A DNA stretch of 64,000 nucleotides from positions 8,151-72,150 of the forward strand of contig CAMOFE010000001.1 in the NCBI GenBank assembly GCA_946613195.1, written 5' to 3'. Positions 6,474 to 63,972 of the stretch are shown here, piece by piece (position 1 is the stretch's first letter; every line of letters starts with the position of its first letter). The notes beneath the pieces were generated by a model. It was not told the DNA's origin. It did not search any database and worked only from the letters and a program-made list of their open reading frames with translations. Made by a program: the position numbers and the translations under genes. This DNA comes from an uncultured Alphaproteobacteria bacterium (lineage in GTDB: Bacteria; Pseudomonadota; Alphaproteobacteria; Rs-D84).

Positions 6474-7979
6474 TTGCTTTTTTGTGATATAATTGTTTTT
6501 GTGAAGAATTGGTTATTGGTTTTTGTATTTGGTTTAATGCCGATTTTATCGGCATGTGATTTACACCCAAAAATAACAAATATTCCAGATTCTGTTGGCG
6601 ATTTTATTGAAACAAGGTATCCTGCGTTGCTGGCAGATCCCGATACCCAGCCAGAAATTTATAATTCGGCGGCAACGGACTATGGCGTTTACGCATCGCC
6701 TGAATTATATGGCGGAACAACCCCAGATGATTATGTTTTGTATGCCAGTGTTGATGATTATATTTTGCCGCCTGATGATACATCAGATGATGCAGAATTA
6801 TTATCAGTACCCACAGAACGACCGCAAATTGAATATGTCCCAGACGAATCAGATACAGAAATATCAGACGATTTTTTAAGTGTGCCAAAATATACGCAAC
6901 CCACAGTACAGTCAAAAACTGAACCTGAAAAAAATTCTGGTGAAATAATTGTTGTTCGTGGTGATACATTATATGCGTTGGCGCGCGCAAACAACACAAC
7001 AGTTGATGCATTGGCGCGTGAAAATAATCTGAATCAGCCATATACACTGCGTGTGGGACAAAAACTAAAATTACCATCAGGAAAAGTTTCACAACCAAAA
7101 CCAGAATCAAAAACCGCGCCAAAAATAGAACAAAAACCGATTGTAAAACCGGAACCTAAACCTGTTGTAAAAGAAATACAAAAACCAGCGCCAAAGCCCG
7201 CACCAAAACCAAAAACGACACCCAAAACAACGACACGTGTGAATCTGACGGATATAACAGTTGGGGCAGGCGATACACTGTATTCACTGTCGCGAAAGTA
7301 TGCAGTGCCAGTCAATGATTTGGCGGTTATAAATAATTTATCTGCGCCGTTTACTTTACGCGTGGGCCAGAAAATCAAGGTTCCAAATGTTGCGGCGGCA
7401 AACGCGCGCGCCGCAAATGTATCAACCAAGACAGCATCGCCCAAACCAAAAACGGTAACCAAGCCAAAATCAGAACCTGTGAAGAAAAAAACAGAACCTA
7501 AAAAAGAAAGTGCAAAACCAAAAACGCAACCAGTCCAAACAAAAAGTCAGACCAAGATATCGTCTGACCCAACCCAGAAATTACCAAAGATTGCGGCGCG
7601 TTCGTCGTCCAAGTTTTCGTGGCCTGTGCGTGGTAAAATATTGTCTGCATATGGCACAAAGTCCACAGGTCTGTTTAATGATGGTATTAACATATCTGCA
7701 TCAATGGGCGCAAGCGTGCGTGCCGCAGAAAACGGTGTCGTTGCATATGCCGGGAACGAAGTAAAAGGTATGGGGAATTTAATAATAATTCAGCATAGTG
7801 ATGGTTGGATGACGGTATATGCGCATTTGGATACAATTGGTTTGCGCCACGGTGCGCGTGTTAATGTTGGTGATAAAATAGGAACTGTTGGAAAAACCGG
7901 CAAGGTATCAGAACCCCAGTTACATTTTGAGATTCGGCGTGGCACAAAATCATACAATCCAACAAAATACTTAAAATAA
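6474..7979 (+). CDS. LysM-domain M23 peptidase (NlpD/EnvC-like murein hydrolase activator), probably a lipoprotein
   Basis: Two LysM repeats (VVRGDTLYALA.., VGAGDTLYSLS..), a Pro/Lys-rich linker, and a C-terminal M23 domain (HSDGW..YAHL.., LHFEIRRG). The lipobox start is probably the internal MPILSAC. Confidence 0.85.
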   Translation: MLFCDIIVFVKNWLLVFVFGLMPILSACDLHPKITNIPDSVGDFIETRYPALLADPDTQPEIYNSAATDYGVYASPELYGGTTPDDYVLYASVDDYILPPDDTSDDAELLSVPTERPQIEYVPDESDTEISDDFLSVPKYTQPTVQSKTEPEKNSGEIIVVRGDTLYALARANNTTVDALARENNLNQPYTLRVGQKLKLPSGKVSQPKPESKTAPKIEQKPIVKPEPKPVVKEIQKPAPKPAPKPKTTPKTTTRVNLTDITVGAGDTLYSLSRKYAVPVNDLAVINNLSAPFTLRVGQKIKVPNVAAANARAANVSTKTASPKPKTVTKPKSEPVKKKTEPKKESAKPKTQPVQTKSQTKISSDPTQKLPKIAARSSSKFSWPVRGKILSAYGTKSTGLFNDGINISASMGASVRAAENGVVAYAGNEVKGMGNLIIIQHSDGWMTVYAHLDTIGLRHGARVNVGDKIGTVGKTGKVSEPQLHFEIRRGTKSYNPTKYLK

Positions 7980-7982
7980 CAA

Positions 7983-8007
7983 TCGCCCCATGTGGGGCGA
8001 TTTTTAA
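7983..8007 (+). terminator. Rho-independent terminator (GC hairpin CGCCCCATGTGGGGCG + T-tract)
   Basis: Perfect hairpin followed by TTTTT immediately after the M23 peptidase stop codon. Confidence 0.6.
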
Positions 8008-8060
8008 GTGAATAGTGAAAAGTGAATTAATGTATAAATACCCGCACAAACTGTGCGGGC
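8004..8060. repeat. Partial copy of dispersed palindromic repeat family A (TAAGTGAATAGTGAAAAGT.. with CCCGCAC..GTGCGGG hairpin)
   Basis: Shares the TAAGTGAATAGTGAAAAGTGAAT head and the CCCGCAC-loop-GTGCGGG hairpin with copies at 43.7 kb and 61.15 kb. Confidence 0.6.
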
Positions 8061-8073
8061 TAATAAATTTTTG

Positions 8074-8149
8074 TGGTGGACGCGCAGGGACTCGAACCCT
8101 GGACCCACTGATTAAGAGTCAGTTGCTCTACCAACTGAGCTACGCATCC
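8074..8149 (-). tRNA. tRNA-Lys (anticodon CTT)
   Basis: The reverse complement folds as a cloverleaf: acceptor GGATGCG/CGCGTCC, anticodon loop CTCTTAA, T-arm GGTTCGAGTCC, 3' CCA. 76 nt. Confidence 0.88.
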
Positions 8150-8948: not shown

Positions 8949-8983
8949 GGTTGCAGGTTGTATGTTGTTAGTGTTTTTTTATC

Positions 8984-9034
8984 ACAGGGCAGAGAGTAAC
9001 GAAAGGACCAGCAACCAAAAAATCATAAATCTTT
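8984..9034. repeat. Dispersed repeat family B (..CAGAGAG(T/C)AACGAAAG..ACCAGCAACCAAAAAATCATAAATC..)
   Basis: Near-identical ~50-nt element is also found at 37735-37792 and 45035-45085, each upstream of a gene start. Confidence 0.6.
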
Positions 9035-9043
9035 TTTGCCCCC

Positions 9044-11152: not shown

Positions 11153-11213
11153 GTGTACTTTTGCATAAAATTATGATAAAATCATAATCGTTAAATAAAT
11201 TGAAGGTGGGGCA

Positions 11214-11504
11214 ATGAAAAAAATACTTTTATGCACGTTGGCAGTATTTACTTTGGTTGCGTGTGAACGCGCGCCAAAAAGTAATATTATATGCGGTGAT
11301 TATAATATTCAGATGAATTTTTCCGAAGATGGTTCAATGTTGCATGCCATTATAAACGGCGATGATTTGGATTTAACATTGGCACCGTCTGCATCGGGCG
11401 CACGTTATGTCGGTGTGCTGAACGATACAAATGTAACCCTGTGGTCCAAGGGGGATGATTGGACAATGTTCTTGAATGACGAAGACCCGATTGAATGTAA
11501 ATAA
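11214..11504 (+). CDS. MliC-like (C-type lysozyme inhibitor) lipoprotein
   Basis: Lipobox LVAC, ~96 aa, conserved SASGARY motif and paired Cys typical of the MliC family. Confidence 0.5.
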   Translation: MKKILLCTLAVFTLVACERAPKSNIICGDYNIQMNFSEDGSMLHAIINGDDLDLTLAPSASGARYVGVLNDTNVTLWSKGDDWTMFLNDEDPIECK

Positions 11505-17162: not shown

Positions 17163-18451
17163 GCAAATTCCCCGCGCAGGGATGCTTTATTTGCATTGGT
17201 AATTTTTATTTTTGCCATTTGCGGTGCGGTATTTGGGTCAATGTTTACAATACATTGTTGCATATATGGCGTGCGGTATATGGTGTGTTTGCCGGTTTTA
17301 TCTGCGCCTTCGCATAAGCATTCCAGTGTTTTACCAACACACGATACATTAAATTCGCGTTGAATTTCAGACAGCATCGCATCCAATTTATACAGACGTT
17401 CCTTTTTTATGTTTTCAGGCACCTGGTCTGGCATAATTGCAGCGGCGGTGTGTGGACGTGGTGAATACTTGAATGTAAAAGAATTGATATATTTAATTCG
17501 TTGTGCGATATCCATTGTTTGCTGAAAATCATCATCCGATTCGCCTGGGAACCCAACAATAAAGTCAGATGATATTTGTATGTCTGGTCGCGCCACGCGC
17601 AGTTTGTTCACAATATCAATATATGAATCCAGTGAATATGGACGATTCATACGTTTCAGAACATCTGGCGAACCACTTTGTATCGGCATATTCAAGAACG
17701 GTAATAATTTTGGTTCAATGGCAAACATTTCAATTAAATCATCGGTCATCTCGGTTGGATAACTGGATGTGAAACGAATGCGTTTTATTTTGGGCAGGGT
17801 GGCGGCTGCACGAATTAAATCCGACAGCCGATAATTTTCATATTTATATCCATTTACATTTTGCCCCAGAAAACAAATTTCTATCGCGCCAGTTTGGGCG
17901 GCATGTTTTGTGTCGCGTACAACATCCGCATATGGACGCGATATTTCACGACCACGCGTAAATGGGACAATACAATATGTACAGACGTGATTACAACCTT
18001 CTTGGATTGGAATATATGCAACCGCCGGCGAAGAATCCATTTGTGGCATTTCGTCAAATTTTTCCAGGCCACCTAGGTCAATGTTTAATAATGGCGAATC
18101 GGGATTATCTAAAATTTGTGGTAATTTATGATAACTTTGCGGCCCCAACACAAAGTTTAATTCAGGTACACGCCGAAATGCGCCAGACCCAACTTCACGT
18201 GCAACGCAACCAACAATTCCCAACAATGCAGATGGTTTTTTGGCAAGTCTGATGCGCCCCAGTGCAGAAAAAACTTTATCCGTCGCCTTTTCGCGTACAG
18301 AACAAGTGTTTAATATGATTATGTCCGCATCACTCAGTTCAGATGTTTCAGTCATCCCGCGTGCGCGCAACATGGCAGCAATACGCATGCCATCATATAC
18401 ATTCATCTGGCAACCAAAAGTGTGAATAAAGAATTTCTGCATATGGTGCAA
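17159..18451 (-). CDS. miaB: tRNA-2-methylthio-N6-dimethylallyladenosine synthase MiaB
   Basis: UPF0004 N-terminal domain (FIHTFGCQMNVYD), radical-SAM CxxxCxxC (CNHVCTYC), TRAM C-terminus. 430 aa. Confidence 0.9.
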   Translation of the reverse strand: MHHMQKFFIHTFGCQMNVYDGMRIAAMLRARGMTETSELSDADIIILNTCSVREKATDKVFSALGRIRLAKKPSALLGIVGCVAREVGSGAFRRVPELNFVLGPQSYHKLPQILDNPDSPLLNIDLGGLEKFDEMPQMDSSPAVAYIPIQEGCNHVCTYCIVPFTRGREISRPYADVVRDTKHAAQTGAIEICFLGQNVNGYKYENYRLSDLIRAAATLPKIKRIRFTSSYPTEMTDDLIEMFAIEPKLLPFLNMPIQSGSPDVLKRMNRPYSLDSYIDIVNKLRVARPDIQISSDFIVGFPGESDDDFQQTMDIAQRIKYINSFTFKYSPRPHTAAAIMPDQVPENIKKERLYKLDAMLSEIQREFNVSCVGKTLECLCEGADKTGKHTIYRTPYMQQCIVNIDPNTAPQMAKIKITNANKASLRGEFA

Positions 18452-22235: not shown

Positions 22236-22703
22236 TTATTTACCTTTGGTGTTTTTCATAATTAAATTTGTCAAAAATTGTAATTGGGCATTGCAATTGA
22301 TTTTCTGTTTTTCCAGTTCCTGTATTGCTTGGGTATGTTCTGCAATTTTCCGTTTGTGTTCGGCGATTTTTAATTGAATATCGCGGGATTGTTGTTGCAG
22401 CGTTTGACTGGCTGTCTGCATTTCAGATACAGTTTTATATTTCATATTTTCATTAAAATACATGGCCAGTTTCATATTTATTTCACCCAAGGTGATTTTA
22501 CCCATATTGCGTATATGGTGTAAATTATCTTGATGTTTTAACAATTCACCAATGGTGCGTATATCCCCATAACCTTTTAAGGTATTAGATGCACGTGTTG
22601 ATAAATTCAACACATCAATAGAAACATCAAATTCATCGTTTTTCATATTATTCTCCATCCATAACTTTTGGTACAGCAAAGTATCCACGTGATACGCCGG
22701 CAT
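22236..22703 (-). CDS. RNA polymerase alpha-subunit C-terminal-domain (alpha-CTD)-like protein with C-terminal coiled coil
   Basis: Segment DVLNLSTRASNTLKGYGDIRTIGELL resembles the alpha-CTD helix-hairpin-helix, followed by a heptad-rich tail (IAEHKRKIAEHTQAIQELEKQK). The likely start is an internal Met just after the gatC stop. Lies between gatC and gatA. Confidence 0.45.
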   Translation of the reverse strand: MPAYHVDTLLYQKLWMENNMKNDEFDVSIDVLNLSTRASNTLKGYGDIRTIGELLKHQDNLHHIRNMGKITLGEINMKLAMYFNENMKYKTVSEMQTASQTLQQQSRDIQLKIAEHKRKIAEHTQAIQELEKQKINCNAQLQFLTNLIMKNTKGK

Positions 22704-37734: not shown

Positions 37735-37792
37735 CGCAGAGAGCAAAGAGCAACGAAAGTACCAGCAACCAAAAAATCATAAATCATAAATC
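37735..37792. repeat. Dispersed repeat family B copy
   Basis: CAGAGAGCAAAGAGCAACGAAAGTACCAGCAACCAAAAAATCATAAATCATAAATC, matching 8984-9034 and 45035-45085. Confidence 0.6.
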
Positions 37793-43689: not shown

Positions 43690-43715
43690 TAAACAATCGC
43701 GCCATGTGCACAATT

Positions 43716-43848
43716 GTTTAAGTGAATAGTGAAAAGTTAATAGTGAATAATGTATGAACGCCCGCACGATTTATCGTGCGGGTGCATTAATTAATGTTGA
43801 GCCGACAAAATGTCGGCGCACAAACACTGTTCACTTAAAAAAACTATT
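43716..43848. repeat. Full copy of dispersed palindromic repeat family A (MITE-like, ~130 bp)
   Basis: TAAGTGAATAGTGAAAAGTTAATAGTGAATAATG..CCCGCACGATTTATCGTGCGGG..GCCGACAAAATGTCGGCG..CACTGTTCACTTA. Inverted termini and two internal hairpins. Nearly identical to 61153-61272. Confidence 0.7.
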
Positions 43849-44018
43849 GCATGTTTTTTTTTCTTGCGTTTGTTCTGATAGTTTTTATACACTGGCAAAT
43901 GAAAAATGCGGGGGAACAGAAATGAGCAAGGCATATGGCATAGGGCATAAAGCATATATAAGCAATAGAACAAAGCAATTAAATCATAAATCAGCAATCC
44001 GAAATCATAAATTAATGA

Positions 44019-44759
44019 TTGTTTTTTGCATTATGCACTATGCCCGTTGCCATTTGCATTAGTCCAGTCAATGCAGAAGAATACTGTGTTCCGACAAATT
44101 ATACAATAACATATCAATTGGGCGGTGGTTGTAATGGTACCGCGCCATCATCTGTAACGGTTGCCCGTGGTGCGAATTTTACGACACCAAATGCCGCAAC
44201 GGCGTGTGGCGACAATACCGTTACAAAATGGAAAATAGACGGCACAAATGATTACATAACATCAAACACAACATTGCCATACGTGTGGACGAATGATATA
44301 ACATTGGTTGCAGGCGCCACCGTTGTCAGCCTATCTGCGCCGTATTCTGTAAATACCAGCATACACGGTTATCAGAACGACAGTCGTAGTGCATACGGTG
44401 CAGAGTCATTCAATTGCACCGGATGCAACGATAATGAATGGCATGCGGACTTCAGTTATGGCACGGTAACTGGCATTGCCAGTTGTAACAGCACCCCTGG
44501 CGATAATCAGGATATGAAATGGACAAATCCGACAACAGCCAGTTCAGACAGTATGAGCAGCAGCAGTACCGGTCAATATTGCTGGTGTAAAATGACAGGC
44601 TTTGCCGGGCAGTCATTGTCGGTTGCGCCGTGGGGGTTCTTCTACGACTACGACAGTGCGGACAGTTGCGCGGCCGGCTGTGCGTCCCACGTTGCCGCTC
44701 ATCCCGGATTCCGCGGGGCGGTGTATAACGCATCGGGCGTGATTAATTCCGAAGAATAA
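44019..44759 (+). CDS. Secreted Cys-rich hypothetical protein
   Basis: Probable signal peptide (..ICISPVNA|EEYC). 246 aa with ~14 Cys and Thr/Asn-rich beta-like segments. Start is uncertain (TTG/ATG). Confidence 0.45.
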   Translation: MFFALCTMPVAICISPVNAEEYCVPTNYTITYQLGGGCNGTAPSSVTVARGANFTTPNAATACGDNTVTKWKIDGTNDYITSNTTLPYVWTNDITLVAGATVVSLSAPYSVNTSIHGYQNDSRSAYGAESFNCTGCNDNEWHADFSYGTVTGIASCNSTPGDNQDMKWTNPTTASSDSMSSSSTGQYCWCKMTGFAGQSLSVAPWGFFYDYDSADSCAAGCASHVAAHPGFRGAVYNASGVINSEE

Positions 44760-45120
44760 AGTTAAATATCCATCTGTGCATCGGTATAGCAGCGATTAAG
44801 GCACAGGGCAAAAGTTCCCCTCTGGCTAGAGGGGTGCCGCGAAAGCGGCGGGGTGTCGTGAAAAAAAAAGAGCACAGAGCAGAGAGTACAGAGCACAGTG
44901 TTCTACCGCCACTGTCATACTCGGGCTTGACCCGAGTACCCAGGTAAATAATGCAGCGCGCAATGCGCGCACAAATAAACCTGGATTCCACGGTCAAGCC
45001 GTGGAATGACAGGAAAAGAGAGTAATGACAAAAATAGAGCACAGAGAGCAACCAACAACCAGCAACCTAAAAATCATAAATTCAGTAATTGCTGGATTTT
45101 ATTCTTGCTTTTTAATCATT
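44760..45120. repeat. Composite intergenic repeat region (multiple perfect palindromes plus family B repeat)
   Basis: Palindromes CCCCTCTGGCTAGAGGGG, ACTCGGGCTTGACCCGAGT, TTCCACGGTCAAGCCGTGGAA and CAGCGCGCAATGCGCGC; AGAGCACAGAGCAGAGAGTACAGAGCACAG reiterations; family B copy at 45035-45085. Confidence 0.65.
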
Positions 45121-45170
45121 AAAAAGTATAATAATTGCCAGTCTTAATGAAATAAACCAAGGTTTCTGAT

Positions 45171-45623
45171 ATGAAACGCAAAGAATATGTTCGTTTGATG
45201 GGACGTGCGCTGATTATGTTTGACAGATTGGCGGATGGATTAAAGTTACGTCCAGAAAAACTGGACGGTTTTACGCGCCAACAAATGACTGTGCTGGTAC
45301 GATTGCTGTTGGATGGCCGTGCCAAGTTAAAAGATATTGCGCGTCGCGAAATGGTATCTGCGCCGAATCTGTGCGCAACATTTCGGAAACTGGAACACGA
45401 TGGTTTGGTGTTGCGTACGGTTGATGAATCAGACAGACGAAACACGTGGTATTCTGTTACGCGTTCTGGGGAACGGGTTGCGCGTCGCGCCATTGAACAA
45501 TTTTATGATATGATGGAAAAAATGTTCGCAGATTTGGATTCAGATGATGAACAAGAATTAACAGGCGCATTGGAATCAATGAACGAAATTTTAACAAAGG
45601 TGGTAAAAAATCATGTTGGGTAA
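45171..45623 (+). CDS. MarR-family transcriptional regulator
   Basis: Winged HTH (..QMTVLVRLLLDGRAKLKDIARREMVSAPNLCATFRKLEHDGLVLRTVDESDRRNTWYSVTRSGE). 150 aa, first gene of the efflux operon. Confidence 0.8.
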   Translation: MKRKEYVRLMGRALIMFDRLADGLKLRPEKLDGFTRQQMTVLVRLLLDGRAKLKDIARREMVSAPNLCATFRKLEHDGLVLRTVDESDRRNTWYSVTRSGERVARRAIEQFYDMMEKMFADLDSDDEQELTGALESMNEILTKVVKNHVG

Positions 45624-46950
45624 AAAGTATTATTTGATTGGTGGTATTATTTGTGCGCTGGTTTCGGCGCCGTCTTTTGGTATGGATTTATCACTGGAAT
45701 CGGCGGTGGAAAAAATTATCGCAGAATCCCAAGATATTAAGAAAGCAGATGCAAATGTTAAACAGGCCCAAGCGCAATTGGATGCGGTAAACGCGAATCG
45801 TTGGTTTAATATTTCTGCAAATGCATCGTATATGAATCTGATAAATGTTAAAAAGCCATTTGATTCCACGGGAATGGAATTGCCTGATAATCTGAACATG
45901 GTAAAACATTTCTTGAATAATGCCGAAGATTTGGATTTGTCTAATCTTGCAATCCCAGATAATATATTTATGGCAGGTGTGAAAATAACCCAACCGATAT
46001 ATACATTTGGTAAAATCGGTCATGCCGTGGACAGTGTGCGTGACGCAATTTCTATGTCCGAATCGGGACGTGAATTGACTATGCGCGAAGTTCGGTACAG
46101 TGCCACTGATTTATATTGGACCGCCAAAATGACAGATGAAATTGTGAAACTGGCGGAAAAAGATTTGCAATCTGCGCGCCAGGCTAAAAATAATGTGGCG
46201 GCGGTTGGTCGTGCGAATCGCAGTAACTTGGTTAAAATTGAATCTGATATTGCAGCAAAACAAATAAACCTGTCGGATGCAGAATTTAATCGTGATACCG
46301 CGTACAGAATGTTGAAAATTTTGGCGGGCATTGATATAAATGAAGATATTGTTTTAACAGATGAATTTCCATCTGAATTTGCAGACCTGGATGCAGGCGA
46401 ATTTACCACCACACCAAAATTGGATATGTTAAGCAAGCAGGCAAAAATGTATGAATCCCAGGCAAAATCAAAACGCGCAGATGCGTACCCAACACTGGCG
46501 GCAATGGGGTCATACAGTTATATGACAATGGACGAATCGTTCCGTGATATGTTTAATCGCAATAATTCGCAATCTGCGTATTGGGGATTGGCGCTGGAAG
46601 TGCCGATATTTACAGGTGGCTTGAACCGTGCAAATGCAACAGTCAGCGCAATGAATGCCGAAGCCGCCCGTCAAGACCTGGACAAGGCAAAGAAATTAAC
46701 CGCCGAAGAATATAATCGTGCAATTGCACAATATAATCATTTGCGTGGTAATTTGGAAAACTTGCAAAACGCACGCGATTTGGCAGCCAAGGCATATCAA
46801 TTTTCCGAAGAAAGATTTGCCGCCGGCCAAACATCTGCGGTGGAATTATCTGATGTCGCCGCAGGGTTGTATCAACTGGATATGGCACTGTTAAATTCTA
46901 AATATAAAATTTTAATGTCAGCAGAATCTGTTAAAAAATTGGGGAATTAA
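45613..46950 (+). CDS. TolC-like outer-membrane efflux protein (OMF family)
   Basis: Signal peptide. Two OEP repeats with coiled-coil and beta-strand pattern. 445 aa. Confidence 0.8.
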   Translation: MLGKKYYLIGGIICALVSAPSFGMDLSLESAVEKIIAESQDIKKADANVKQAQAQLDAVNANRWFNISANASYMNLINVKKPFDSTGMELPDNLNMVKHFLNNAEDLDLSNLAIPDNIFMAGVKITQPIYTFGKIGHAVDSVRDAISMSESGRELTMREVRYSATDLYWTAKMTDEIVKLAEKDLQSARQAKNNVAAVGRANRSNLVKIESDIAAKQINLSDAEFNRDTAYRMLKILAGIDINEDIVLTDEFPSEFADLDAGEFTTTPKLDMLSKQAKMYESQAKSKRADAYPTLAAMGSYSYMTMDESFRDMFNRNNSQSAYWGLALEVPIFTGGLNRANATVSAMNAEAARQDLDKAKKLTAEEYNRAIAQYNHLRGNLENLQNARDLAAKAYQFSEERFAAGQTSAVELSDVAAGLYQLDMALLNSKYKILMSAESVKKLGN

Positions 46951-46954
46951 AAAG

Positions 46955-47581
46955 ATGAAAACACTAGATAAAATTCGCAAGTGGTTTGCGGGGCTGAATA
47001 TTGCGCGCATAAAAAAAGTTTTTTATATCGCGTGTATGGCGATAATGGTGCTGTGGGTTATATACAGATTTGTGTCTGTCGCACTGGAAAGTCGGCGTGA
47101 TGTGTTTAATACTGCGCGTGATGCGGCGGTAAATGGTGTGCCAGTGCATGTTATTGAAATGCATAAAACAAATGGCGTATTGCGTGAACCTGTGTTTGTA
47201 ACACATAATCGTATTTATGTATCTGGGGCGCGTATAAACTTGTTCCGTACTGGTATGCGTGTGGGCGAAGGTGAAGTTGTATCTGTATCGCATAATATTG
47301 ATTATGATACAGGTATGCATATTGTAACAACACGTGGTGTGGGGGACGGTGCGAACTTTGCCGAATATTCTGCAAACGGATTTTTTGTGCCAGTTTATGC
47401 AATATCAGATGGTGCTGTGTTTGTTGTTAGTGGTGAACACGCATCGCGTCGTGATATATCTGTATCGCGTATGGATTCTGAAAACGCACTGGTATCCCAG
47501 GGGTTGTCGGATGGCGATATGGTGATTTTATCACATATCACAGACGGCGAAAAAGTCAGTATTAAAATTACAGAAAAATAA
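46955..47581 (+). CDS. Short membrane-anchored periplasmic adaptor-like protein (truncated MFP/HlyD-like?)
   Basis: 208 aa with an N-terminal TM then beta-rich domains, in the adaptor position between OMF and RND genes. About 150 aa shorter than canonical MFPs. Confidence 0.4.
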   Translation: MKTLDKIRKWFAGLNIARIKKVFYIACMAIMVLWVIYRFVSVALESRRDVFNTARDAAVNGVPVHVIEMHKTNGVLREPVFVTHNRIYVSGARINLFRTGMRVGEGEVVSVSHNIDYDTGMHIVTTRGVGDGANFAEYSANGFFVPVYAISDGAVFVVSGEHASRRDISVSRMDSENALVSQGLSDGDMVILSHITDGEKVSIKITEK

Positions 47582-47582
47582 T

Positions 47583-50500
47583 TTGTGGGGGGATTTTGTT
47601 ATGTTAAAGTTTTTTGTTCGCAGACCTGTTACAACAATAATGTTTGTTTTGGTATGGGTTGTGTTGGGCTTGGTGTCCATTCCAAAAATGAATATTGAAC
47701 GCACACCGTCCTTGGATTTTCCAATGGTAACTGTTCGGTTTATATATCCCGGCGCATCCAGTGAAGAAATAGAATCCCAGGTTATTAAAAAAGCCGAAGA
47801 TGCCGTATCCGAAGTCCCAGAATTAAAACACATAACATCCCGTATTTTTGAGAATGGCGGATATATTATGACTGAATTCAACCTGGGGGTTGATGCAAAT
47901 GATAAAGCATCCGAAGTCAAATCAAAAATAGATGCATTAGCATCTGAATTCCCAGATGAATTAAAGCAGCCTGTGGTTGAAAAATTAAACCCATTGCAAG
48001 AATCTGTGGTAGATATTGTTTTGCGCGGTGCAGATGCACGCGATTTGGAAAAATATGTTGATGATGTATTGTCTAATAAAATTACTGCAATTCCAGGTGT
48101 AGCCAAGGTATCAACATTTGGTGGACGCAATCGTGCAATTCGTGTTGCGATGAATCCTGACTTAATGGCGGCACGTGGTGTTACGATAATGGATGTTGTA
48201 TCGGCATTGGGTAATAAAAATCTGAATGTGCCAGGTGGTAAATTGGAATATGGAACAACATCTGAAAACGTGCGATTTATTGGTGAATTTGCATCTGTGG
48301 ACGAAATAAGTCAATTACGAATCACAACAGCCGAAGGGCAAAATTTTAGATTGTCAGATATCGCATCTGTATCTGATGGTGCGCGTGATATTGAAACAGG
48401 CGCATTGTACAGTGGCGAATCGGTTGTTATCGCATCTGTGGAAAAAGCATCAGATGGCAACGCAATTAAAATTTCGCGTGAATTGCGTAAACACCTGGGG
48501 GAATATCAATCAGATATGCAATCGCGATTCCCAGATGCAACAATGACAATCGCAACAGATTCATCGGTTACCGTTATGGACGAAACACTGGATACCATGT
48601 GGGGTATTATACTGGGGATTGTGTTCACAGTATTGGTCTTGTTGGCGTTTACGCGTAATTGGCGTTCAACAATTATCGCAGGTGTTGTGATTCCTGCATC
48701 ATTATTGGCTGGATTTACATTTATGTCCGCCAGTGGATTTACCATAAATGTTATGACACTGTTGGCATATTCATCTGCATTGGGGACATTGGTTGCGAAT
48801 GCTATTATTTTGATAGAGGCCGCCCTGCAAGAATTGCGTGCAGGTAAATCACCCGAAGATGCTGCAATTGATGGAACTAAAAAAGTCGCTGTATCTGTAT
48901 TGGCGGGCGTTGGAACAAATGTTGTGGTGTTCTTGCCACTGGCGTTTATGGGCGGAATCGTCGGTATGTTTATGGTGCAATTTGGTCTGACGGTTGTGTA
49001 TTTAACATTGTTATCATTGGTATTCTCGTTCACTTTAACGCCAATGATGATTGCAAAAATATTGCGTTTGACCCCAGGTGATAAAAAAGCCGCAAAACCG
49101 TCTGTTCAGAAAAAACGCAGTACAGGTTGGATGCGAAAAATATTCGTATCCCAGGTGCGACATCCAGGTCGCTTTGCGATTACGGCGGTGGTTGCGCTGG
49201 TTGCATCAACAATGTTGATGCGGTTTGTTGGAAATGAATTCTCGCCATCAACAGATGCAAATGAAATAAATATTACTGCGCGTGCACCAGTTGGCGCAAC
49301 ATATGAAAAATCTGAATCTATTGCGCGACAAATAGAAAAAAATATTTCTGATATACCCGAAGTTTTGGCAACCACAGTCAAAATCGGCGACCAAGGATTA
49401 CAGAATATATCGGTCAAAGTAACATTGGTTGATAATTCTGAACGCGGTAAATCTGATAAACGTTTGGCCCAGGAAATGTTGCCACGTCTGGCGGTGATTC
49501 CAGATGCAGAAATTCAGATTCGTGCAGGTCAAGCAATGGGTTCTGTATCATCTGATATGGTTCTGAATATATATGGTCCAGATGATGCAGTGCGTGAAAA
49601 GTACGCAAATGATATTATCGCAATGGCAAATCAAATAACCGCAGTGCAAAGTGCTGTTCTGGCGCAACAGGTGGCTGGTAATGAAATTAAATTTATCCCA
49701 GATGCGGAAAAAATGAATTTCTGGGGTATAAAAAATTCGTATGCTGGGGCAACTTTGCGTGCAGCGTTGTACGGGAACGATGATTACAAATATAAAGAAA
49801 ATGGCGATGAATATCCGATTATATTGGAATATGACAGCGCATTCCAAAACCATGCAATGTTTGATATGGTTTATGTAAATTCACCAAAAGGGATGGTGCC
49901 ACTGTCCAGCCTGGGTGAAATACAGACTGCGCGTGCAACCCCTGATATTCGCCGTTTGGACAAAAGTCGTATTACAGAAATTGATATCAATATTGGTAAG
50001 TCAACATTGGGACCGGTGCAAGCAAAAATAGAATCTGGTCTGAAAAAAATGGATTGGCAACCTGGGTATCATTATGAATTTGGTGGAATGTCAGAAACAC
50101 AATCAGAATCCACAGGCGAAATCGGCAGCGCATTCTTGTTGGCGACAATATTGACATTTATGTTGTTGGCGGCAATTCTGAATTCGTTTACCCATCCATT
50201 AACAATCGCAACATCAATTATAACCAGTTTCTTTGGTGTGTTTATAATGCTGTTCTTGTCAGGTGCATCAATGAATGTTGGTGCGATGGTGGCGTTTGTT
50301 ATGTTGGTGGGCTTGGTTGTGAATAACAGTATTCTGGTACTGGAACCTGCGTTGGCGCGTGTTCGCCGTGGCGAAGATAAAACAGACGCGATATGGGCAG
50401 AATTAACATCGCGTCGTTCAATGGTAATGATGACATCTATCGCCATTGTAACAGGTATGTTGCCCCAGTTGTGGAGTACCAATGGTATGAAAGCCGCCAT

Positions 50501-50612
50501 GGCGGCGGTAATGATTGGCGGTATGTTGGCCAGTATGCTGTTCACATTTATGTTGACCCCGGCTTTGTTCTTTTTGATGGAAAGTTTGCGGGGCAGGGTA
50601 AAGAAAAAGTGA
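47583..50612 (+). CDS. RND-family efflux transporter (AcrB/HAE1-like)
   Basis: ~1000 aa, 12 TM in a 1+5/1+5 topology with two large periplasmic loops. Typical AcrB N-terminus (MLKFFVRRPVTT..). The true start is probably the internal MLKFF. Confidence 0.9.
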   Translation: MWGDFVMLKFFVRRPVTTIMFVLVWVVLGLVSIPKMNIERTPSLDFPMVTVRFIYPGASSEEIESQVIKKAEDAVSEVPELKHITSRIFENGGYIMTEFNLGVDANDKASEVKSKIDALASEFPDELKQPVVEKLNPLQESVVDIVLRGADARDLEKYVDDVLSNKITAIPGVAKVSTFGGRNRAIRVAMNPDLMAARGVTIMDVVSALGNKNLNVPGGKLEYGTTSENVRFIGEFASVDEISQLRITTAEGQNFRLSDIASVSDGARDIETGALYSGESVVIASVEKASDGNAIKISRELRKHLGEYQSDMQSRFPDATMTIATDSSVTVMDETLDTMWGIILGIVFTVLVLLAFTRNWRSTIIAGVVIPASLLAGFTFMSASGFTINVMTLLAYSSALGTLVANAIILIEAALQELRAGKSPEDAAIDGTKKVAVSVLAGVGTNVVVFLPLAFMGGIVGMFMVQFGLTVVYLTLLSLVFSFTLTPMMIAKILRLTPGDKKAAKPSVQKKRSTGWMRKIFVSQVRHPGRFAITAVVALVASTMLMRFVGNEFSPSTDANEINITARAPVGATYEKSESIARQIEKNISDIPEVLATTVKIGDQGLQNISVKVTLVDNSERGKSDKRLAQEMLPRLAVIPDAEIQIRAGQAMGSVSSDMVLNIYGPDDAVREKYANDIIAMANQITAVQSAVLAQQVAGNEIKFIPDAEKMNFWGIKNSYAGATLRAALYGNDDYKYKENGDEYPIILEYDSAFQNHAMFDMVYVNSPKGMVPLSSLGEIQTARATPDIRRLDKSRITEIDINIGKSTLGPVQAKIESGLKKMDWQPGYHYEFGGMSETQSESTGEIGSAFLLATILTFMLLAAILNSFTHPLTIATSIITSFFGVFIMLFLSGASMNVGAMVAFVMLVGLVVNNSILVLEPALARVRRGEDKTDAIWAELTSRRSMVMMTSIAIVTGMLPQLWSTNGMKAAMAAVMIGGMLASMLFTFMLTPALFFLMESLRGRVKKK

Positions 50613-50701
50613 ATAGTGAACAGTGAATAGTGTTTGTGCGCCGACATTTTATCGGCGCAACATTCATTTATTATTCACTATTAACTGTTCACTATTCACT
50701 A
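50608..50701. repeat. Family A repeat variant with perfect terminal inverted repeats
   Basis: GTGAATAGTGAACAGTGAATAGTG..GCGCCGACATTTTATCGGCGC..CACTATTAACTGTTCACTATTCAC. The element begins inside/at the RND stop codon (AAGTGAATAG). Confidence 0.65.
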
Positions 50702-50703
50702 AA

Positions 50704-50732
50704 TAAAAATCGCCCAAATGGGCGATTTTTTA
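50704..50732. terminator. Bidirectional Rho-independent terminator
   Basis: AAAAATCGCCCAAATGGGCGATTTTTTAT between the RND gene and convergent pgsA. Confidence 0.6.
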
Positions 50733-59652: not shown

Positions 59653-60702
59653 TTAACAACCAACAACCTTATCATTGCTGGCCATAATATTTTTTATCTC
59701 GTCCATGCAGTTTTCGGTTATGTTTTGCATCGCCAACCCCATCCAATCGCGCGGATTAAAGTTTTCAGGGTGTGCGGTCAAAAATTCACGCACACCCGCG
59801 GTGAACGCCAGACGTGAATCACTGTCCACATTTATTTTGCAGATGTTCATTTGTGTGGCGCGCCTTAGTTGTGCGGTGTCAATTCCGCGGGCATCACCCA
59901 GTTTCCCACCGTGCGCATTTATTGATTTAACCAAGTGTGCTGGCACAGATGATGCACCATGCAGCACCAGTGGAAATTTTGGTAATTTTTTTGCTATTTT
60001 TTCCAAGATATCAAATCGTAACGATTCATCATCGGATTTTCGCTTATATGCGCCATGACTGGTGCCGATGGCGATTGCCAATGAATCAACATTTGTGTCT
60101 TTTACAAATTTCACAACATCGTCTGGGTTTGTGTATTGTGAATATTCTGATTTTGTGTTTTCGTCTTCTATGCCAGACAGTGTGCCCAGTTCTGCCTCTA
60201 CACAAACATCGTATTTATGTGCGTATTCGGCAACGCGTCGCGACAGTTTTGTATTTTCATCATATGGCATTGCAGATGCATCAATCATAACAGATGAAAA
60301 GCCCAAGTCTATCGCGTGCTGGCATAAATCATACGAATGACCATGATCCAGGTGCAGTGCCACACATTCTGAATCTGATAATTTTAATCCGCCAATCATT
60401 GACATCAGCATATCGTCCCCCATATATTTTAGCGCACTTTCTGATACCGCCAATATAACAGGACTGTGTGTTTTGCGTGCCGCCGCCATAATCGCGGTCA
60501 GTGTTTCCATATTATAAAAATTAAATGCCGGTACTGCATAATTGCGCGTAATTGCATCACTGAACATATCACGGGTGTTAACCAGACCGAATTTGGAATA
60601 TTTTCTCATTTGTGTTCCTTTGTTTTTGTTTATTATATCACAGTGCAAGGGGCTGTGTAAGTGGTTAGTTAGTCCTTGACAACAGGCTGATTTGTGCAAC
60701 AA
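59653..60702 (-). CDS. fba: Class II fructose-bisphosphate aldolase
   Basis: ..AVPAFNFYNMETLTAIM..PVIL.., HLDHG zinc-binding motif and ..HGASS... The likely start is the internal MRKYSK. Confidence 0.9.
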   Translation of the reverse strand: MLHKSACCQGLTNHLHSPLHCDIINKNKGTQMRKYSKFGLVNTRDMFSDAITRNYAVPAFNFYNMETLTAIMAAARKTHSPVILAVSESALKYMGDDMLMSMIGGLKLSDSECVALHLDHGHSYDLCQHAIDLGFSSVMIDASAMPYDENTKLSRRVAEYAHKYDVCVEAELGTLSGIEDENTKSEYSQYTNPDDVVKFVKDTNVDSLAIAIGTSHGAYKRKSDDESLRFDILEKIAKKLPKFPLVLHGASSVPAHLVKSINAHGGKLGDARGIDTAQLRRATQMNICKINVDSDSRLAFTAGVREFLTAHPENFNPRDWMGLAMQNITENCMDEIKNIMASNDKVVGC

Positions 60703-61125
60703 TTATCTACGAATCGGGGGAGATGCAAGAGACCAACCATACAAAAGGAAAAACATATGAAGAATTTAATTGCTTGTTTGTTTGCGGTTGCCACATTGGC
60801 AGGTTGCACATATTACGATTATTACAAAGGCGGCGTTCGCTATACCCAGGATGGCGATGATTGTATTTATTATGCAGACGAAGCAGGTCGTCGTTTTTCT
60901 GACAATGTAAATTCAATGAATCAAGATAAAAAGATTGTTTATCGCAACACACGTTGTGCAGACTTGTTTAATCGCGATACAGAAAAATTGGACAAGCCAG
61001 CAATCACACGTTCTGTAATTGCGCCGGCATATGTTGCGCCATCGGCACCTGTTATGCCAACATGCGGTTGCAACACATGTGGTCAACCACAGCCGATTGT
61101 TCGTCGTACATATGTGATGTATTAA
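60694..61125 (+). CDS. Small lipoprotein, unknown function
   Basis: The internal start MKNLIACLFAVATLAGC gives a lipobox. ~120-aa mature protein with 6 Cys. Confidence 0.5.
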   Translation: MQQLSTNRGRCKRPTIQKEKHMKNLIACLFAVATLAGCTYYDYYKGGVRYTQDGDDCIYYADEAGRRFSDNVNSMNQDKKIVYRNTRCADLFNRDTEKLDKPAITRSVIAPAYVAPSAPVMPTCGCNTCGQPQPIVRRTYVMY

Positions 61126-61152
61126 AAAAAACGCCCCACGGGGCGTTTTTTT

Positions 61153-61272
61153 TTAAGTGAATAGTGAAAAGTTAAAAGTGAATAATGGACGAATGCCCAC
61201 ACGATGAATCATGTGGGCGCATCAATTAATGTTGCACCAACAAAATGTCGGCGCACAAACACTATTCACTAT
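61153..61272. repeat. Full copy of dispersed palindromic repeat family A
   Basis: TAAGTGAATAGTGAAAAGTTAAAAGTGAATAATG..GCCCACACGATGAATCATGTGGGC..ATGTCGGCGCACAAACACTATTCACTA, ~85% identical to 43716-43848. Confidence 0.7.
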
Positions 61273-62154: not shown

Positions 62155-63522
62155 TTGTTTTGTGTATGTATAAAATTTGTTCATCGTATTAATAAAAAGG
62201 AAAGGGATATGTTGAAAAAAATATTGTACGCGTTTGCTGCGTTATTGTTTATATTGCCGGCACGCGCCGAATTACGCGTTGATATTGTTGCGGGTGGCGC
62301 AGATCCGATTTCAATCGCGGTGCAAAAAATAGAAACCGCCGATGGTGTATCCAGCAAAGATGCCGCAACTGTACGCGCAGTGGTTGAAAATGACCTGAAA
62401 TCCACAGGCTTGTTTCGGATTGTGTCGCATGACGCGTTCCCAGAATATGTTAAAATGAACGATATGCCAAAATTCAAGTCGTGGGCGGCAATAAAAACGC
62501 AAGTCCTGGTCCAGGGTAAAATGACGGTAGAAAAAGGTAAATATAAACTGGAATTCTATGTTTGGGATGTTAATGGTTCTGAACAGATAGAGGCGCAATC
62601 ATTGGTTGCATCAAAAAAGTCAGTTCGCCGTCTGGGACATATTATGGCGGATGCAATATATGAACGATTGACTGGGGAAACAGGCTATTTTGATACACAA
62701 ATTGTCTTTATCGCCGAATCAGGTCCGGTTGGCAACCGTACAAAACGTATGGCGATTATGGACCAAGACGGATTTGGAATGCGTTATTTGTCTGATAAAA
62801 ATACTTTTGTAATGTCGCCACATTTTTCGCCAAATATGCAAACTATTGTATTCTTGTCTTATTATAATAATGACCCGATGGTTTGGTCGTTGGACTTAAA
62901 TACCGGGGAACAGCGCAGGCTGGGACAATTCGGTGGAATGAATTTTGCACCACGATTTTCACCTGATGGTCGGCGCATCGCGTTATCTTTGGTCAAAGAC
63001 GGTATTACACATATATATGAATACGATATTGAATCCAAAGCATTACGCCAGTTAACATTTGGTAATTCTATTAATACCAGTCCGTCTTATTCCCCAGATG
63101 GTAAAAAAATGGCGTTTAATTCTGACCGTTCGGGACGTCAACAGATTCATGTGCTGGATTTACAGAGTCTGGATGAAGAACGTATCACATATGGTGATGG
63201 TCGCTATGCGACACCGGCATGGTCGCCAGATGGGCAATTTATCGCGTTTACAAAAATTGCAGATGATACTTTTTATATTGGCATAATGTCCCCAAATGGT
63301 CGGAACGAGAAAATATTAGCAGGTGGCTGGTTTATGGAGGCACCATCCTGGGCACCAGGTTCACGCCGCTTGGTTTATTATGAAACAGAACGTGCGCTGG
63401 ACGATATAGAACGCATCAGTCATATTCGCAGTGTTGATATAACTGGGCAAAATCTGTACGATATTGAATTGCCTGATGATATAAATGGAACGGAACCAAC
63501 ATGGTCGCCACGCTTGCCATAG
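62155..63522 (+). CDS. tolB: Tol-Pal system periplasmic protein TolB
   Basis: Signal peptide at the internal MLKKILYAFAALLFILPARA; N-terminal alpha/beta domain plus six-bladed beta-propeller with repeated ..SP(D/N)G.. blades. Confidence 0.9.
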   Translation: MFCVCIKFVHRINKKERDMLKKILYAFAALLFILPARAELRVDIVAGGADPISIAVQKIETADGVSSKDAATVRAVVENDLKSTGLFRIVSHDAFPEYVKMNDMPKFKSWAAIKTQVLVQGKMTVEKGKYKLEFYVWDVNGSEQIEAQSLVASKKSVRRLGHIMADAIYERLTGETGYFDTQIVFIAESGPVGNRTKRMAIMDQDGFGMRYLSDKNTFVMSPHFSPNMQTIVFLSYYNNDPMVWSLDLNTGEQRRLGQFGGMNFAPRFSPDGRRIALSLVKDGITHIYEYDIESKALRQLTFGNSINTSPSYSPDGKKMAFNSDRSGRQQIHVLDLQSLDEERITYGDGRYATPAWSPDGQFIAFTKIADDTFYIGIMSPNGRNEKILAGGWFMEAPSWAPGSRRLVYYETERALDDIERISHIRSVDITGQNLYDIELPDDINGTEPTWSPRLP

Positions 63523-63543
63523 TTAGTTGTTAGTTGTTGGTGG

Positions 63544-63972
63544 TTGGTGTTTAGGATTATATCATTTTTTATAATGTTAATATGCGGTGTTGGTGTGGCA
63601 AATGCCACACCCGCCACGGTTAGTTATATTATAGATGGTGATACTTTTGCGGCATATGTAAAATTAGAAGATGGTATTAAAATATCTGTGCGTGTGCGTA
63701 TTCGCAATGTTGATACACCTGAAATTCATGGGGAATGCGAATCGGAAATAAGACGGGCATACCTGGCCAAGGAACATTTATCAAAACTGATTCCGGTGGG
63801 GACGGATGTTGAATTAACAAATATCAAAGATGATAAATATTTAGGGCGAATTGATGCAAATGTTCTGGATGGTGCGGGACGCGATGTGGGTGCTGTTATG
63901 ATTAAATCTGGGTTTGGGCGACCGTATAATGGTGGGCGGCGTGTTGGTTGGTGTGAAAATTCCCAAAAATAA
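63544..63972 (+). CDS. Secreted thermonuclease (staphylococcal-nuclease-like, SNase fold)
   Basis: Signal peptide; ..VSYIIDGDTFAAYVKLEDG..VRVRIRNVDTPE.., ..YLGRIDANVLDG...DVGAVMIKSG. matches SNase catalytic Arg/Glu and Ca-binding Asp positions. Confidence 0.75.
   Translation: MVFRIISFFIMLICGVGVANATPATVSYIIDGDTFAAYVKLEDGIKISVRVRIRNVDTPEIHGECESEIRRAYLAKEHLSKLIPVGTDVELTNIKDDKYLGRIDANVLDGAGRDVGAVMIKSGFGRPYNGGRRVGWCENSQK

Follow-up and report, generated by a model that had tools for sequence, protein, structure and literature searches.

A Modular, Gene-Less Palindrome With Tandem-Heptamer Arms, Dispersed Behind Genes of an Uncultured Alphaproteobacterium

Introduction

Just behind dnaJ in the DNA of this uncultured alphaproteobacterium lies a short palindromic sequence that recurs at three other places in the window, the name used here for the whole 64,000-nt stretch analyzed (GC content 41%). 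What kind of element is it, how did its copies arise, and does it have a role at the 3' ends of the genes that it follows? A first-pass annotation had described four loci, starting at 8004, 43716, 50608, and 61153, as family A, a MITE-like family of palindromic repeats at gene 3' ends that might also act as a terminator or as an RNA element. All four are found at these positions when the sequence is read and, with a fifth copy on another contig (L155), the description as a structured palindrome, repeated at scattered sites behind genes, holds.

Architecture of Family A

Family A is a modular, gene-less palindrome of about 95-150 bp with homologous and dispersed copies. Its modules follow one another in the order terminator-like hairpin with T-run, three to four AGTGAAW heptamers, one or two GC stem-loops, and two to four inverse heptamers. 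The heptamers form arms of 13-31 nt that are mutual inverse complements, so that terminal inverted repeats are present, and the hairpins form a core of 40-80 nt. The head reads AAGTGAATAGTGAA[A/C]AGT at all four window loci. It had been taken for a plain motif shared by the copies; shared it is, but as an array of tandem heptamers (AGTGAAT AGTGAAA AGTTAAT AGTGAAT), of which the tail is the inverse. In the same way, the inverted-repeat termini noticed earlier are real as inverse arms, but they consist of heptamer arrays of variable number and of a type found across phyla. The modules of the window copies, with the stop codons before or within them, are as follows.

7977-79: stop codon of the M23/LysM peptidase gene, preceding copy 1
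7978..8005, plus strand: copy 1, terminator-like flanking hairpin ATCGCCCC ATGT GGGGCGAT with T-run, directly 3' of the M23 peptidase stop codon (sequence reading)
8006..8027, plus strand: copy 1, left arm, three heptamers AGTGAAT AGTGAAA AGTGAAT
8041..8059, plus strand: copy 1, hairpin 1 variant CCCGCAC AAACT GTGCGGG
43687-89: stop codon of dnaJ, preceding copy 2
43692..43719, plus strand: copy 2, flanking hairpin module, decayed; together with the head, 82% identical over 50 nt to 7978-8027
43720..43749, plus strand: copy 2, left arm AGTGAAT AGTGAAA AGTTAAT AGTGAAT
43761..43782, plus strand: copy 2, hairpin 1, CCCGCACGAT TT ATCGTGCGGG
43801..43817, plus strand: copy 2, hairpin 2, GCCGACA AAA TGTCGGC
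43825..43837, plus strand: copy 2, right arm CACTGTTCACTTA, shortened to about two inverse heptamers; the element ends here
50608..50632, minus strand: copy 3 (inverted), right arm of the element, in plus-strand reading AGTGAAT AGTGAAC AGTGAAT AGTG
50610-12: stop codon (TGA) of the RND pump gene, within the first heptamer of copy 3
50638..50658, minus strand: copy 3, hairpin 2 (GCGCCGA..TCGGCGC); the hairpin-1 module is missing
50670..50700, minus strand: copy 3, left arm (head) of the element, four inverse heptamers in plus-strand reading
50704..50731, minus strand: copy 3, two-way flanking terminator AAAAATCGCCC AAAT GGGCGATTTTTT, adjoining the head
61123-25: stop codon of the gene for a small protein (60694-61125; no Pfam match), preceding copy 4
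61126..61154, plus strand: copy 4, flanking terminator AACGCCCC AC GGGGCGTT with a run of nine T
61155..61184, plus strand: copy 4, left arm AGTGAAT AGTGAAA AGTTAAA AGTGAAT
61195..61218, plus strand: copy 4, hairpin 1, with a compensated G-C to A-T change relative to copy 2
61236..61253, plus strand: copy 4, hairpin 2, with two transitions, read as A.C mismatches on the plus strand but as G.U pairs on the minus strand
61260..61272, plus strand: copy 4, right arm CACTATTCACTAT, shortened

The complete layout is seen in the fifth copy, which starts with a terminator hairpin and T-run and continues with four heptamers, hairpin 1 (CCCGCACGAT..ATCGCGCGGG), the linker GCATTAATTTAATGTTG, hairpin 2, CACAAACACT, four inverse heptamers, and a second terminator-like hairpin. 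This copy is flanked by two convergent genes that each have a terminator of their own. The window copies differ from this layout by deletions or shortening. Copy 1 is the left half of the element; hairpin 2 and the right arm are absent, and the copy ends at a tRNA-Lys gene. The right arms are cut down in the copies at 43716 and 61153. The copy at 50608, previously listed as a sequence variant, turns out to be the same element in inverted orientation without the hairpin-1 module. Finally, the open reading frame 43754-44062 is not wholly inside copy 2, as had been claimed. It starts there and runs 225 nt past the end of the copy at 43837; its product has no Pfam match.

Common Descent and Spread Within One Lineage

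Several measures of similarity tie the copies together. The 12-mer GTGAATAGTGAA, with at most one mismatch, occurs 10 times in the window where 0.35 occurrences are expected, a count reached in none of 100 shuffles, so that the motif recorded earlier is not due to chance. Similarity also extends well beyond this motif: a gapless alignment of 122 nt between positions 43714-43835 and 61149-61270 has 87% identity, and pairwise identities in a five-way alignment of the window copies and L155 are 75-91%. With a profile of the core, nhmmer finds 43749-43827 (E=9e-26), 61184-61262 (E=4e-23), and, on the minus strand, 50630-50670 (E=5e-8), together with a weak match at 8029-8076 (E=0.09). The copy at 8004 shares 50 nt at 82% identity with the 43716 locus, the hairpin just before the head included. 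Even the non-palindromic linkers GCATTAATTAATGTTG and CACAAACACT are conserved between unrelated loci, which shows that the copies share one ancestor. The hairpins at 7978-8005 and 43692-43719 and the tail-side hairpin of L155 have in common the frame AACAAT..CATG..ATTGTT; therefore, at least some of the flanking hairpins belong to the repeated unit.

The fifth copy was obtained from a metagenome scan with a 23-nt head pattern. It is full-length and stands on a different contig of the same organism; the assembly that holds it also encodes a protein identical to one from the window. Its hairpin-2 loop is inverted (GCCGACTTTTTGTCGGC vs. GCCGACAAAATGTCGGC): the loop ACTTTTTGT of L155 is, except for one base, the inverse of the ACAAAATGT of the window copies. 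Such a flipped loop points to recombination at the DNA level inside the palindrome.

The core, made up of hairpin 1, linker, and hairpin 2, is confined to sequences of this organism among about 1.1 Mb of loci. The hairpin-2 20-mer AAATGTCGGCGCACAAACAC has no match in a metagenome scan and the core is therefore rare outside this organism. A further 13.8 kb of host DNA holds no additional copy. Five copies are thus known, at a density of about one per 16-20 kb in the host DNA examined, and any figure for genome-wide abundance is an extrapolation. Contigs break in or beside copies in two assemblies: the 790-nt contig L126 begins inside the copy at 61153, and ENA scaffold_839 terminates in tRNA-Lys, just past the copy at 8004. 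This is what multi-copy repeats do to assemblies.

The window DnaJ has an identical counterpart on an NCBI/ENA contig. Matches to the motif had at first suggested a Bacteroidota genome, a placement that was rejected since the best named relatives of this DnaJ carry the label Alphaproteobacteria. The closest available relatives lack the element. In L122, where DnaJ is 84% identical and the order gyrB, dnaJ, hypothetical gene, MarR, OEP, MFP, RND is kept, it is absent after both dnaJ and the RND pump gene, and it is likewise absent after dnaJ in L206/L207 (DnaJ 78% identical). All three have a plain terminator in place after dnaJ. At one common threshold, the window holds seven arrays of period 7, one of period 12, and two of period 14, and none of period 13 or of the other periods from 3 to 11; no period-7 array is found in 21 kb of each relative. 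Other heptamer arrays of the window also sit directly upstream of start codons. Arms made of GGCATAN, ATCATAA, or AGAGCAN are seen here as well. The element core is specific to this lineage and absent from its two closest available relatives. Together, the dispersed copies, the fifth copy, the contig breaks, and the absence in relatives show spread within this lineage.

Heptamer Arms of the Same Type Across Phyla

The arms have a much wider distribution than the core. A scan with the 18-nt head, at one genome per species, gave at least 120 loci; Prevotellaceae and other Bacteroidota, Clostridia, Acidobacteriota, Chloroflexota, Gemmatimonadales, candidate-phyla bacteria, cyanobacteria, and an archaeon are among the matches listed. 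At least 243 AGTGAAN arrays are present in 173 listed loci, four units being the commonest length (107/243). Among the loci listed, GTGAA..TTCAC polarity is found in 70 forward-then-reverse pairs, with the inverse array at most 250 nt downstream, against a single reversed pair; a stricter test gives 12 against 0, again among the loci listed. Since the AGTGAAN loci were retrieved with an arm-derived pattern, the likeness of the arms is partly by design, which is not true of the polarity, the four-unit mode, and the palindromic arrangement. The centres of these elements differ between lineages and often comprise one or two GC hairpins. AGTGAAN arms are a cross-phylum type and not lineage-specific. 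A literature search returned no mention of an AGTGAAW motif in bacteria.

Viral contigs contain 22 matches to the head 18-mer, nearly all inside longer arrays. Three control 18-mers of the same composition gave 4, 2, and 19 matches, the 19 being nearly all isolated coding words; the raw counts are mixed relative to the controls and become informative once the array context is inspected. Sequences just upstream of AGTGAAN arrays in other genomes are modestly enriched in T-rich stretches (8% vs. 2.5%). Targeting to terminators is therefore clear for family A and not general.

Heptamer Arrays Around Four-Helix-Bundle Genes

At some loci the arms enclose a gene. In three Prevotellaceae loci (L037, L063, and L120) and in a Clostridia-like contig (L134/L138; L134 is so termed from its LytTR regulator and sensor-kinase neighbors), AGTGAAN/AGTTAAT arms 0.4-0.5 kb apart surround a gene encoding about 100-125 aa, whose product matches PF05635 (23S rRNA intervening-sequence protein) and TIGR02436 (four helix bundle protein). 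A gene-less version with the same inner arms as the gene-carrying loci is also found (L038). When arm pairs 0.4-0.6 kb apart are considered, four out of six contain a PF05635 gene and none contains a transposase.

The arms of these loci had served for their selection. To remove this bias, 24 PF05635 loci were picked by protein similarity alone, 12 from viral contigs and 12 from annotated plasmids. Inverted heptamer arrays flank the gene in 19 of them. In viral contigs, period-7 arrays occur at 9/12 loci, on both sides in seven; on plasmids, at 10/12. Arrays of period 5, 6, 8, or 9 were found at none of the 24. A query with a single protein detected no PF05635 relative in viral contigs, and a query with a six-sequence alignment succeeded. 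The plasmid loci are from Dolichospermum, Nostoc (two loci), Anabaena, Treponema, Planktothrix, Gloeocapsa, Bernardetia, Chondrinema, Chlorohelix, Euhalothece, and Monoglobus. Their arrays usually have four units, are inverse on opposite sides, and use a locus-specific heptamer, such as TAATTCG, CAATTCG, AATTCAA, TTTTAGA, or CTGGTCA (13 units). The heptamer tracks protein identity: TAATTCG is kept at 84-100% identity and CAATTCG is found at 79%, with unrelated heptamers below 60%. The PF05635 genes are found as small inserts between cas2 and cas1, between hsdS and hsdR, between the MFP and RND pump genes, and between helicase and methylase genes. Plasmid matches come mainly from Nostoc and other cyanobacteria, with Bernardetia also among them; heptamer repeats were described in these same groups (PMC4679880).

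Neither the scanned ORFs of the window nor the gene calls of two host scaffolds (with the additional 13.8 kb) include a PF05635 gene. The link between family A and these cassettes therefore rests on architecture and arm sequence, and by these two features family A would be a member of the same class. The gene-carrying members of the class appear to be PF05635/TIGR02436 (S23p) cassettes, the intervening sequences of 23S rRNA included. With slightly better than even confidence, we consider family A to be a lineage-specific, gene-less palindrome belonging to a class of "heptamer-armed hairpin elements" and to be mostly selfish or neutral. The other readings of the locus, as a MITE, a REP/RAYT system, a pure terminator, or an RNA gene, are each less well supported than membership in this class.

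Mode of Spread

Mobility of the classical MITE kind would mean that the copies derive from an insertion sequence by deletion and are mobilized in trans by a DDE transposase (e.g., IS630-like, with TA duplication) that recognizes terminal inverted repeats. Family A is indeed small and non-coding, with inverted termini and several copies that are 75-91% identical, it is missing in L122 and L206/L207, and the polarity of the arms is strictly forward-then-reverse, as terminal repeats should show. TA also bounds copy 2 on both sides, and in other genomes a T precedes AAGTGAAT at 16/19 clean array starts. However, TA fits copy 2 only and no consistent target duplication is seen over the five copies, and the arms are tandem heptamers in variable number, with no fixed terminal sequence. 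No transposase was found among the scanned window ORFs or the gene calls of the two host scaffolds, and no transposase-encoding element with the same ends was seen in the window, the additional 13.8 kb, or about 200 loci. In addition, arms of this one type surround cores that are unrelated from phylum to phylum, and of the six more distant arm pairs described above four hold a PF05635 gene and none a transposase. Hence, the label "MITE-like" is apt for the inverted repeats and for the absence in relatives, but not for target duplication or, in the host sequence examined, a transposase, and we regard a DDE-mobilized origin as unlikely.

The GC hairpins could also be the mobile part, as REP-like units of the REP/BIME or REPIN type spread by a RAYT (an IS200/IS605-type tyrosine transposase), with the arms being incidental. 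This is distinctly improbable. Hairpins of about 17-22 nt are indeed located at 3' ends, outside genes; the flanking hairpin and hairpins 1 and 2 occur in varied combinations and in either orientation, like Escherichia coli BIMEs; and insertion is orientation-specific, always 3' of a T-run. Yet REPs are numerous as single units, whereas hairpins 1 and 2 are never found outside the four copies in the window, where the other GC hairpins are ordinary terminators. Moreover, the host sequence examined contains no RAYT gene, and the most conserved and widespread part of the element is the heptamer arm, not the hairpins.

Stop Codons and Terminators

The family A copies occupy unrelated loci and always lie beside a terminator T-run. 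As stated earlier for this family, all four window copies begin within about 30 nt of a stop codon; the measured distance is 0-29 nt on the 3' side. The M23 peptidase, dnaJ, and RND pump genes were correctly named as neighbors, but the label "lipoprotein" for 60694-61125 finds no support in Pfam. The 25 nt or so from stop codon to head consist of a terminator-like hairpin followed by a T-run, and in every copy the head adjoins the T-run of a GC hairpin. At copy 3, a minus-strand CDP-alcohol phosphatidyltransferase gene precedes the two-way terminator. The orientation of the element relative to adjacent genes varies among copies.

By direct reading, an intrinsic terminator, that is, a GC hairpin with a U-tract, is found at 7982-8005, 50705-50731, and 61130-61154, and is lacking at 43692-43719 and at most internal hairpins, which have no U-tract. 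A simple terminator scan is erratic on family A hairpins, and these calls rely on the sequence as read. A T-rich stretch follows hairpin 2 in copy 3, and another follows hairpin 1 in copy 1. In the latter case, the T-rich stretch follows in minus-strand reading and the hairpin stands just 3' of the tRNA-Lys gene (8074-8149, minus strand); its position suggests that it probably serves as the tRNA-Lys terminator. The terminator role proposed earlier thus suits the flanking hairpin, which looks canonical, but not most of the internal hairpins, which are devoid of a U-tract. The arms themselves carry stop codons: read inward from either side, they contain TGA and TAG in all three frames, and read outward they contain none. 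The TGA of the first heptamer of copy 3 is the stop codon of the RND pump gene.

These features raise the question of whether the structures could have evolved locally as functional 3' ends, for instance as backup or two-way terminators or as mRNA-stabilizing hairpins, and be alike through shared constraint rather than mobility. Their constant place behind genes and beside canonical terminators, the two T-rich stretches just mentioned, and the purine-rich-then-pyrimidine-rich polarity, which fits a two-way terminator, would agree with this. However, the linkers conserved at unrelated loci indicate common descent and not convergence, the U-tract is missing from most internal hairpins, and a simple terminator suffices at the same loci in relatives. 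We find this explanation improbable, to the same degree as REP-type spread.

RNA Folding

The folding and covariance check suggested by the first-pass annotation gave a divided answer. All copies fold very stably on both strands, with z-scores of -4 to -11, but covariation of the hairpins is weak: five sequences yield two double changes, a score also reached by 26 of 500 shuffles. This is too weak to argue for selection at the RNA level. G.U-compatible changes favor opposite strands in different copies. Rfam recognizes two tRNAs in the window and nothing for the element or the related loci, the best score being that of a eukaryotic snoRNA model (E=0.18). A structured non-coding RNA gene or cis-regulatory RNA repeated in the genome is very improbable: stable folds and one or two compensatory changes in hairpin 1 would fit it, but both strands fold equally well and show strand-opposed G.U changes, modules come and go, a loop is flipped, orientation to neighbors varies, and the element lies downstream of terminators, where no promoter-like site was found. 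The suggestion of an RNA element was not borne out, given the empty Rfam search, the varying orientation, the variable modules, and the weak covariation; no RNA gene is supported at family A, and one is unlikely.

Proposed Course of Events

Returning to family A as a gene-less member of the heptamer-armed class, the following course can be proposed. The element would have spread as DNA, probably by a non-DDE route. The length of its arms would change through slippage, and its hairpin loops would flip via recombination within the palindrome. It would be mostly selfish or neutral DNA, tolerated just behind terminators. If transcription reads through the element, the arms are expected to pair into a stem of at least 28 bp, a plausible substrate for RNase III by analogy with known elements, and the predicted cleavage would uncouple the neighboring transcripts. 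Parts of it have been co-opted: one heptamer supplies the RND pump gene with its stop codon, and hairpin 1 of copy 1 probably provides the tRNA-Lys terminator. Elements behind terminators may rarely be transcribed.

Relationships With Known Repeats

The Correia/NEMIS elements of Neisseria and the ERIC sequences of enterobacteria are MITEs that family A resembles, being intergenic palindromes of about 100-150 bp whose transcripts form long hairpins. Correia transcripts are cleaved by RNase III. Unlike family A, Correia elements have fixed terminal repeats with TA duplication, and neither group is known to show a heptamer periodicity.

With the E. coli REP/BIME and Pseudomonas REPIN sequences (Bertels and Rainey, 2011, PMC3116915), family A shares extragenic palindromes at 3' ends, a mosaic of modules, and the capacity to form a long hairpin. 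In contrast, REPs are numerous single units, linked to RAYT, and without tandem-heptamer arms.

Tandem heptamers offer closer parallels. According to Mrazek (2007), as cited in PMC4679880 and PMC4692102, heptamers are the over-represented class of long simple repeats in bacteria, an excess first noted in that study. In Xanthomonas, GGGAATC arrays have mostly four units, and 70-75 of about 185 (about 40%) form convergent pairs (PMC4692102); the arrays follow the upstream ORF at a mean distance of 28 nt and are not conserved from one species to another (Rehm et al., 2015, PMC4692102). Like the convergent pairs of Xanthomonas (GGGAATC) and Nostoc (GGGGAYT), the arms of family A have about four heptamers, are able to form a stem, and are intergenic, lineage-specific, and located just 3' of ORFs (PMC4692102). 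However, the AGTGAAW heptamer of family A is A/T-rich and has no G-quadruplex potential, and family A adds conserved GC hairpins and linkers, so that whole units are homologous. The TAACTGA repeats of Beggiatoaceae, cyanobacteria, and Bacteroidetes (MacGregor, 2015, PMC4679880) and the cyanobacterial STRR are also intergenic tandem heptamers with a patchy cross-phylum distribution. TAACTGA repeats and family A arms both give stop codons in all frames in one orientation only (PMC4679880). Unlike family A, TAACTGA repeats mostly form direct arrays upstream of start codons and have no conserved hairpin core (PMC4679880).

The intervening sequence (IVS) of the Coxiella burnetii 23S rRNA gene is a selfish element of 428 nt whose terminal repeats form a 28-bp stem (PMC4990558). 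Its 5' part carries three to four tandem GACAGAT heptamers just before the start codon of S23p (PMC4990558). Strains differ in the number of these heptamers, and the first repeat is where RNase III cuts (PMC4990558). The full arms of family A (L155 and copy 3) likewise consist of four heptamers and would form a stem of about 28 bp; the core, unlike that of the IVS, is made of about 75 nt of hairpins, has no ORF, and is not in an rRNA gene. Non-rRNA PF05635 cassettes, found on cyanobacterial, Bacteroidota, Spirochaetota, Chloroflexota, and Bacillota plasmids and in viral contigs, resemble family A in that inverted arrays of about four heptamers bound a unit located in a short intergenic spacer. 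Even the arms (AGTGAAN/AGTTAAT) are of the same type in Prevotellaceae and on one Clostridia-like contig. Unlike family A, the cassettes have their loop taken up by a gene of about 120 aa, and the heptamer differs per cassette.

A literature search found no paper tying four-helix-bundle proteins to heptamer repeats in general. We tentatively propose, as a possibility that we hold at less than even strength, that bacterial intergenic heptamer arrays, the cyanobacterial STRR and the general heptamer excess included, are the arms of one widespread class of hairpin cassettes. Its autonomous form would carry a PF05635/S23p/Avd-like gene, family A would be a gene-less miniature, and the pentameric four-helix-bundle protein would recognize, maintain, or mobilize its own arms. 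This proposal is in line with the heptamer sequence tracking protein similarity.

Significance

Taken alone, family A is just another small palindromic repeat between the genes of an uncultured bacterium. It is of use in annotation, where it accounts for the spurious ORF 43754-44062, for the assembly breaks, and for the stop codon that the RND pump gene borrows. The wider value lies with the S23p genes, which have no assigned function, occur in rRNA intervening sequences, and abound in cyanobacteria and Bacteroidota. Almost everywhere examined, these genes are flanked by inverted arrays of about four heptamers, and the wider class to which they point is little described. If the link is general, it would connect the heptamer excess of bacterial genomes, the nature of STRR, and the spread of intervening sequences and S23p genes, all of which is testable.

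A second heptamer-armed palindrome and an almost certainly spurious gene

Family A, a gene-less palindromic repeat with AGTGAAW heptamer arms and GC hairpins, is not the only heptamer-based element in the window. Another heptamer-armed palindrome directly adjoins the family A copy located after dnaJ (copy 2, 43692-43837). Its architecture is that of family A with another heptamer sequence in the arms, and ATCATAA-type heptamers are abundant in its centre:

43928-44065, heptamer-armed palindrome
43930-43957, its left arm, GGCATAT GGCATAG GGCATAA AGCATAT
about 44033-44062, its inverse arm, overlapping the predicted start of gene 44040-44759
43754-44062, ORF of 102 aa, no Pfam match

This last ORF is an annotated gene according to the ENA gene caller. 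It is made up of the family A element core and of the adjacent heptamer arrays, and its dismissal as spurious in the first-pass annotation is almost certainly right.

Surroundings of the efflux cassette

The MarR-OEP-MFP-RND cassette (45171-50612) is preceded by a 410-nt intergenic region (44760-45170) that carries AGAGCAC heptamer arrays along with five GC hairpins, each distinct from the others. In two relatives with 78% identical DnaJ (L206 and L207), the cassette is missing at the corresponding position, where a hypothetical gene is directly followed by the CDP-alcohol phosphatidyltransferase gene. In the window, the cassette therefore lies between repeat-rich DNA and the inverted family A copy at the 3' end of the RND pump gene (copy 3, 50608-50731).

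In a closer relative (L122, DnaJ 84% identical), a structured leader some 230 nt long (..GGTCATTCTT..TATGATTT..) is common to two intergenic regions, one 3' of dnaJ (11190-11440) and the other 3' of the RND pump gene (17820-18050), each upstream of a hypothetical gene without Pfam match. This leader could represent a cis-regulatory RNA that has so far escaped recognition, or a further family of repeats.

Repeats upstream of start codons and in other spacers

A third repeat family, CAGAGAGCAAAGAGCAACGAAAG..ACCAGCAACCAAAAAATCATAAATC, also with heptamer periodicity, is found in three copies in the window, each 3' of a terminator, with a start codon within about 10-90 nt downstream:

8983-9037, downstream gene starting at 9044
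37737-37792, downstream gene starting at 37793
45035-45081, downstream gene starting at 45171

The first two copies are 90% identical. The family resembles the TAACTGA arrays reported upstream of start codons (MacGregor, 2015, PMC4679880).

The TolB gene and the ORF that follows it are separated by 21 nt, a spacer filled by a GTTAGTT/GTTGGTG heptamer array (63519-63554) that extends a few bases into both. Adjoining gatC, a 155-aa ORF (22236-22703, minus strand) has the C-terminal domain of the RNA polymerase alpha subunit as its sole Pfam match, and looks like a stand-alone alpha-CTD protein. In a Faecousia MAG (L029, 1430-2020), AGTGAAT arms separated by about 520 nt flank not a gene but several copies of a GC-rich repeat, which translates as ..MSLRGAQRRGNPV...

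Four-helix-bundle genes as operon inserts

Downstream of a four-helix-bundle protein gene, the Euhalothece natronophila plasmid (L230) carries 13 tandem CTGGTCA units, one base apart from TTGGTCA, reportedly the classical cyanobacterial STRR2 heptamer of Mazel et al. (1990). Elsewhere, genes of this protein family form small inserts within operons, in an Anabaena cylindrica plasmid (L223), Monoglobus (L231), Chondrinema (L228), Chlorohelix (L229) and Dolichospermum (L220). The insertion sites are cas2/cas1, hsdS/hsdR, MFP/RND pump genes and helicase/DNA methylase. This pattern fits a small selfish insert to which intergenic spacers are permissive, frequently those inside defence systems.
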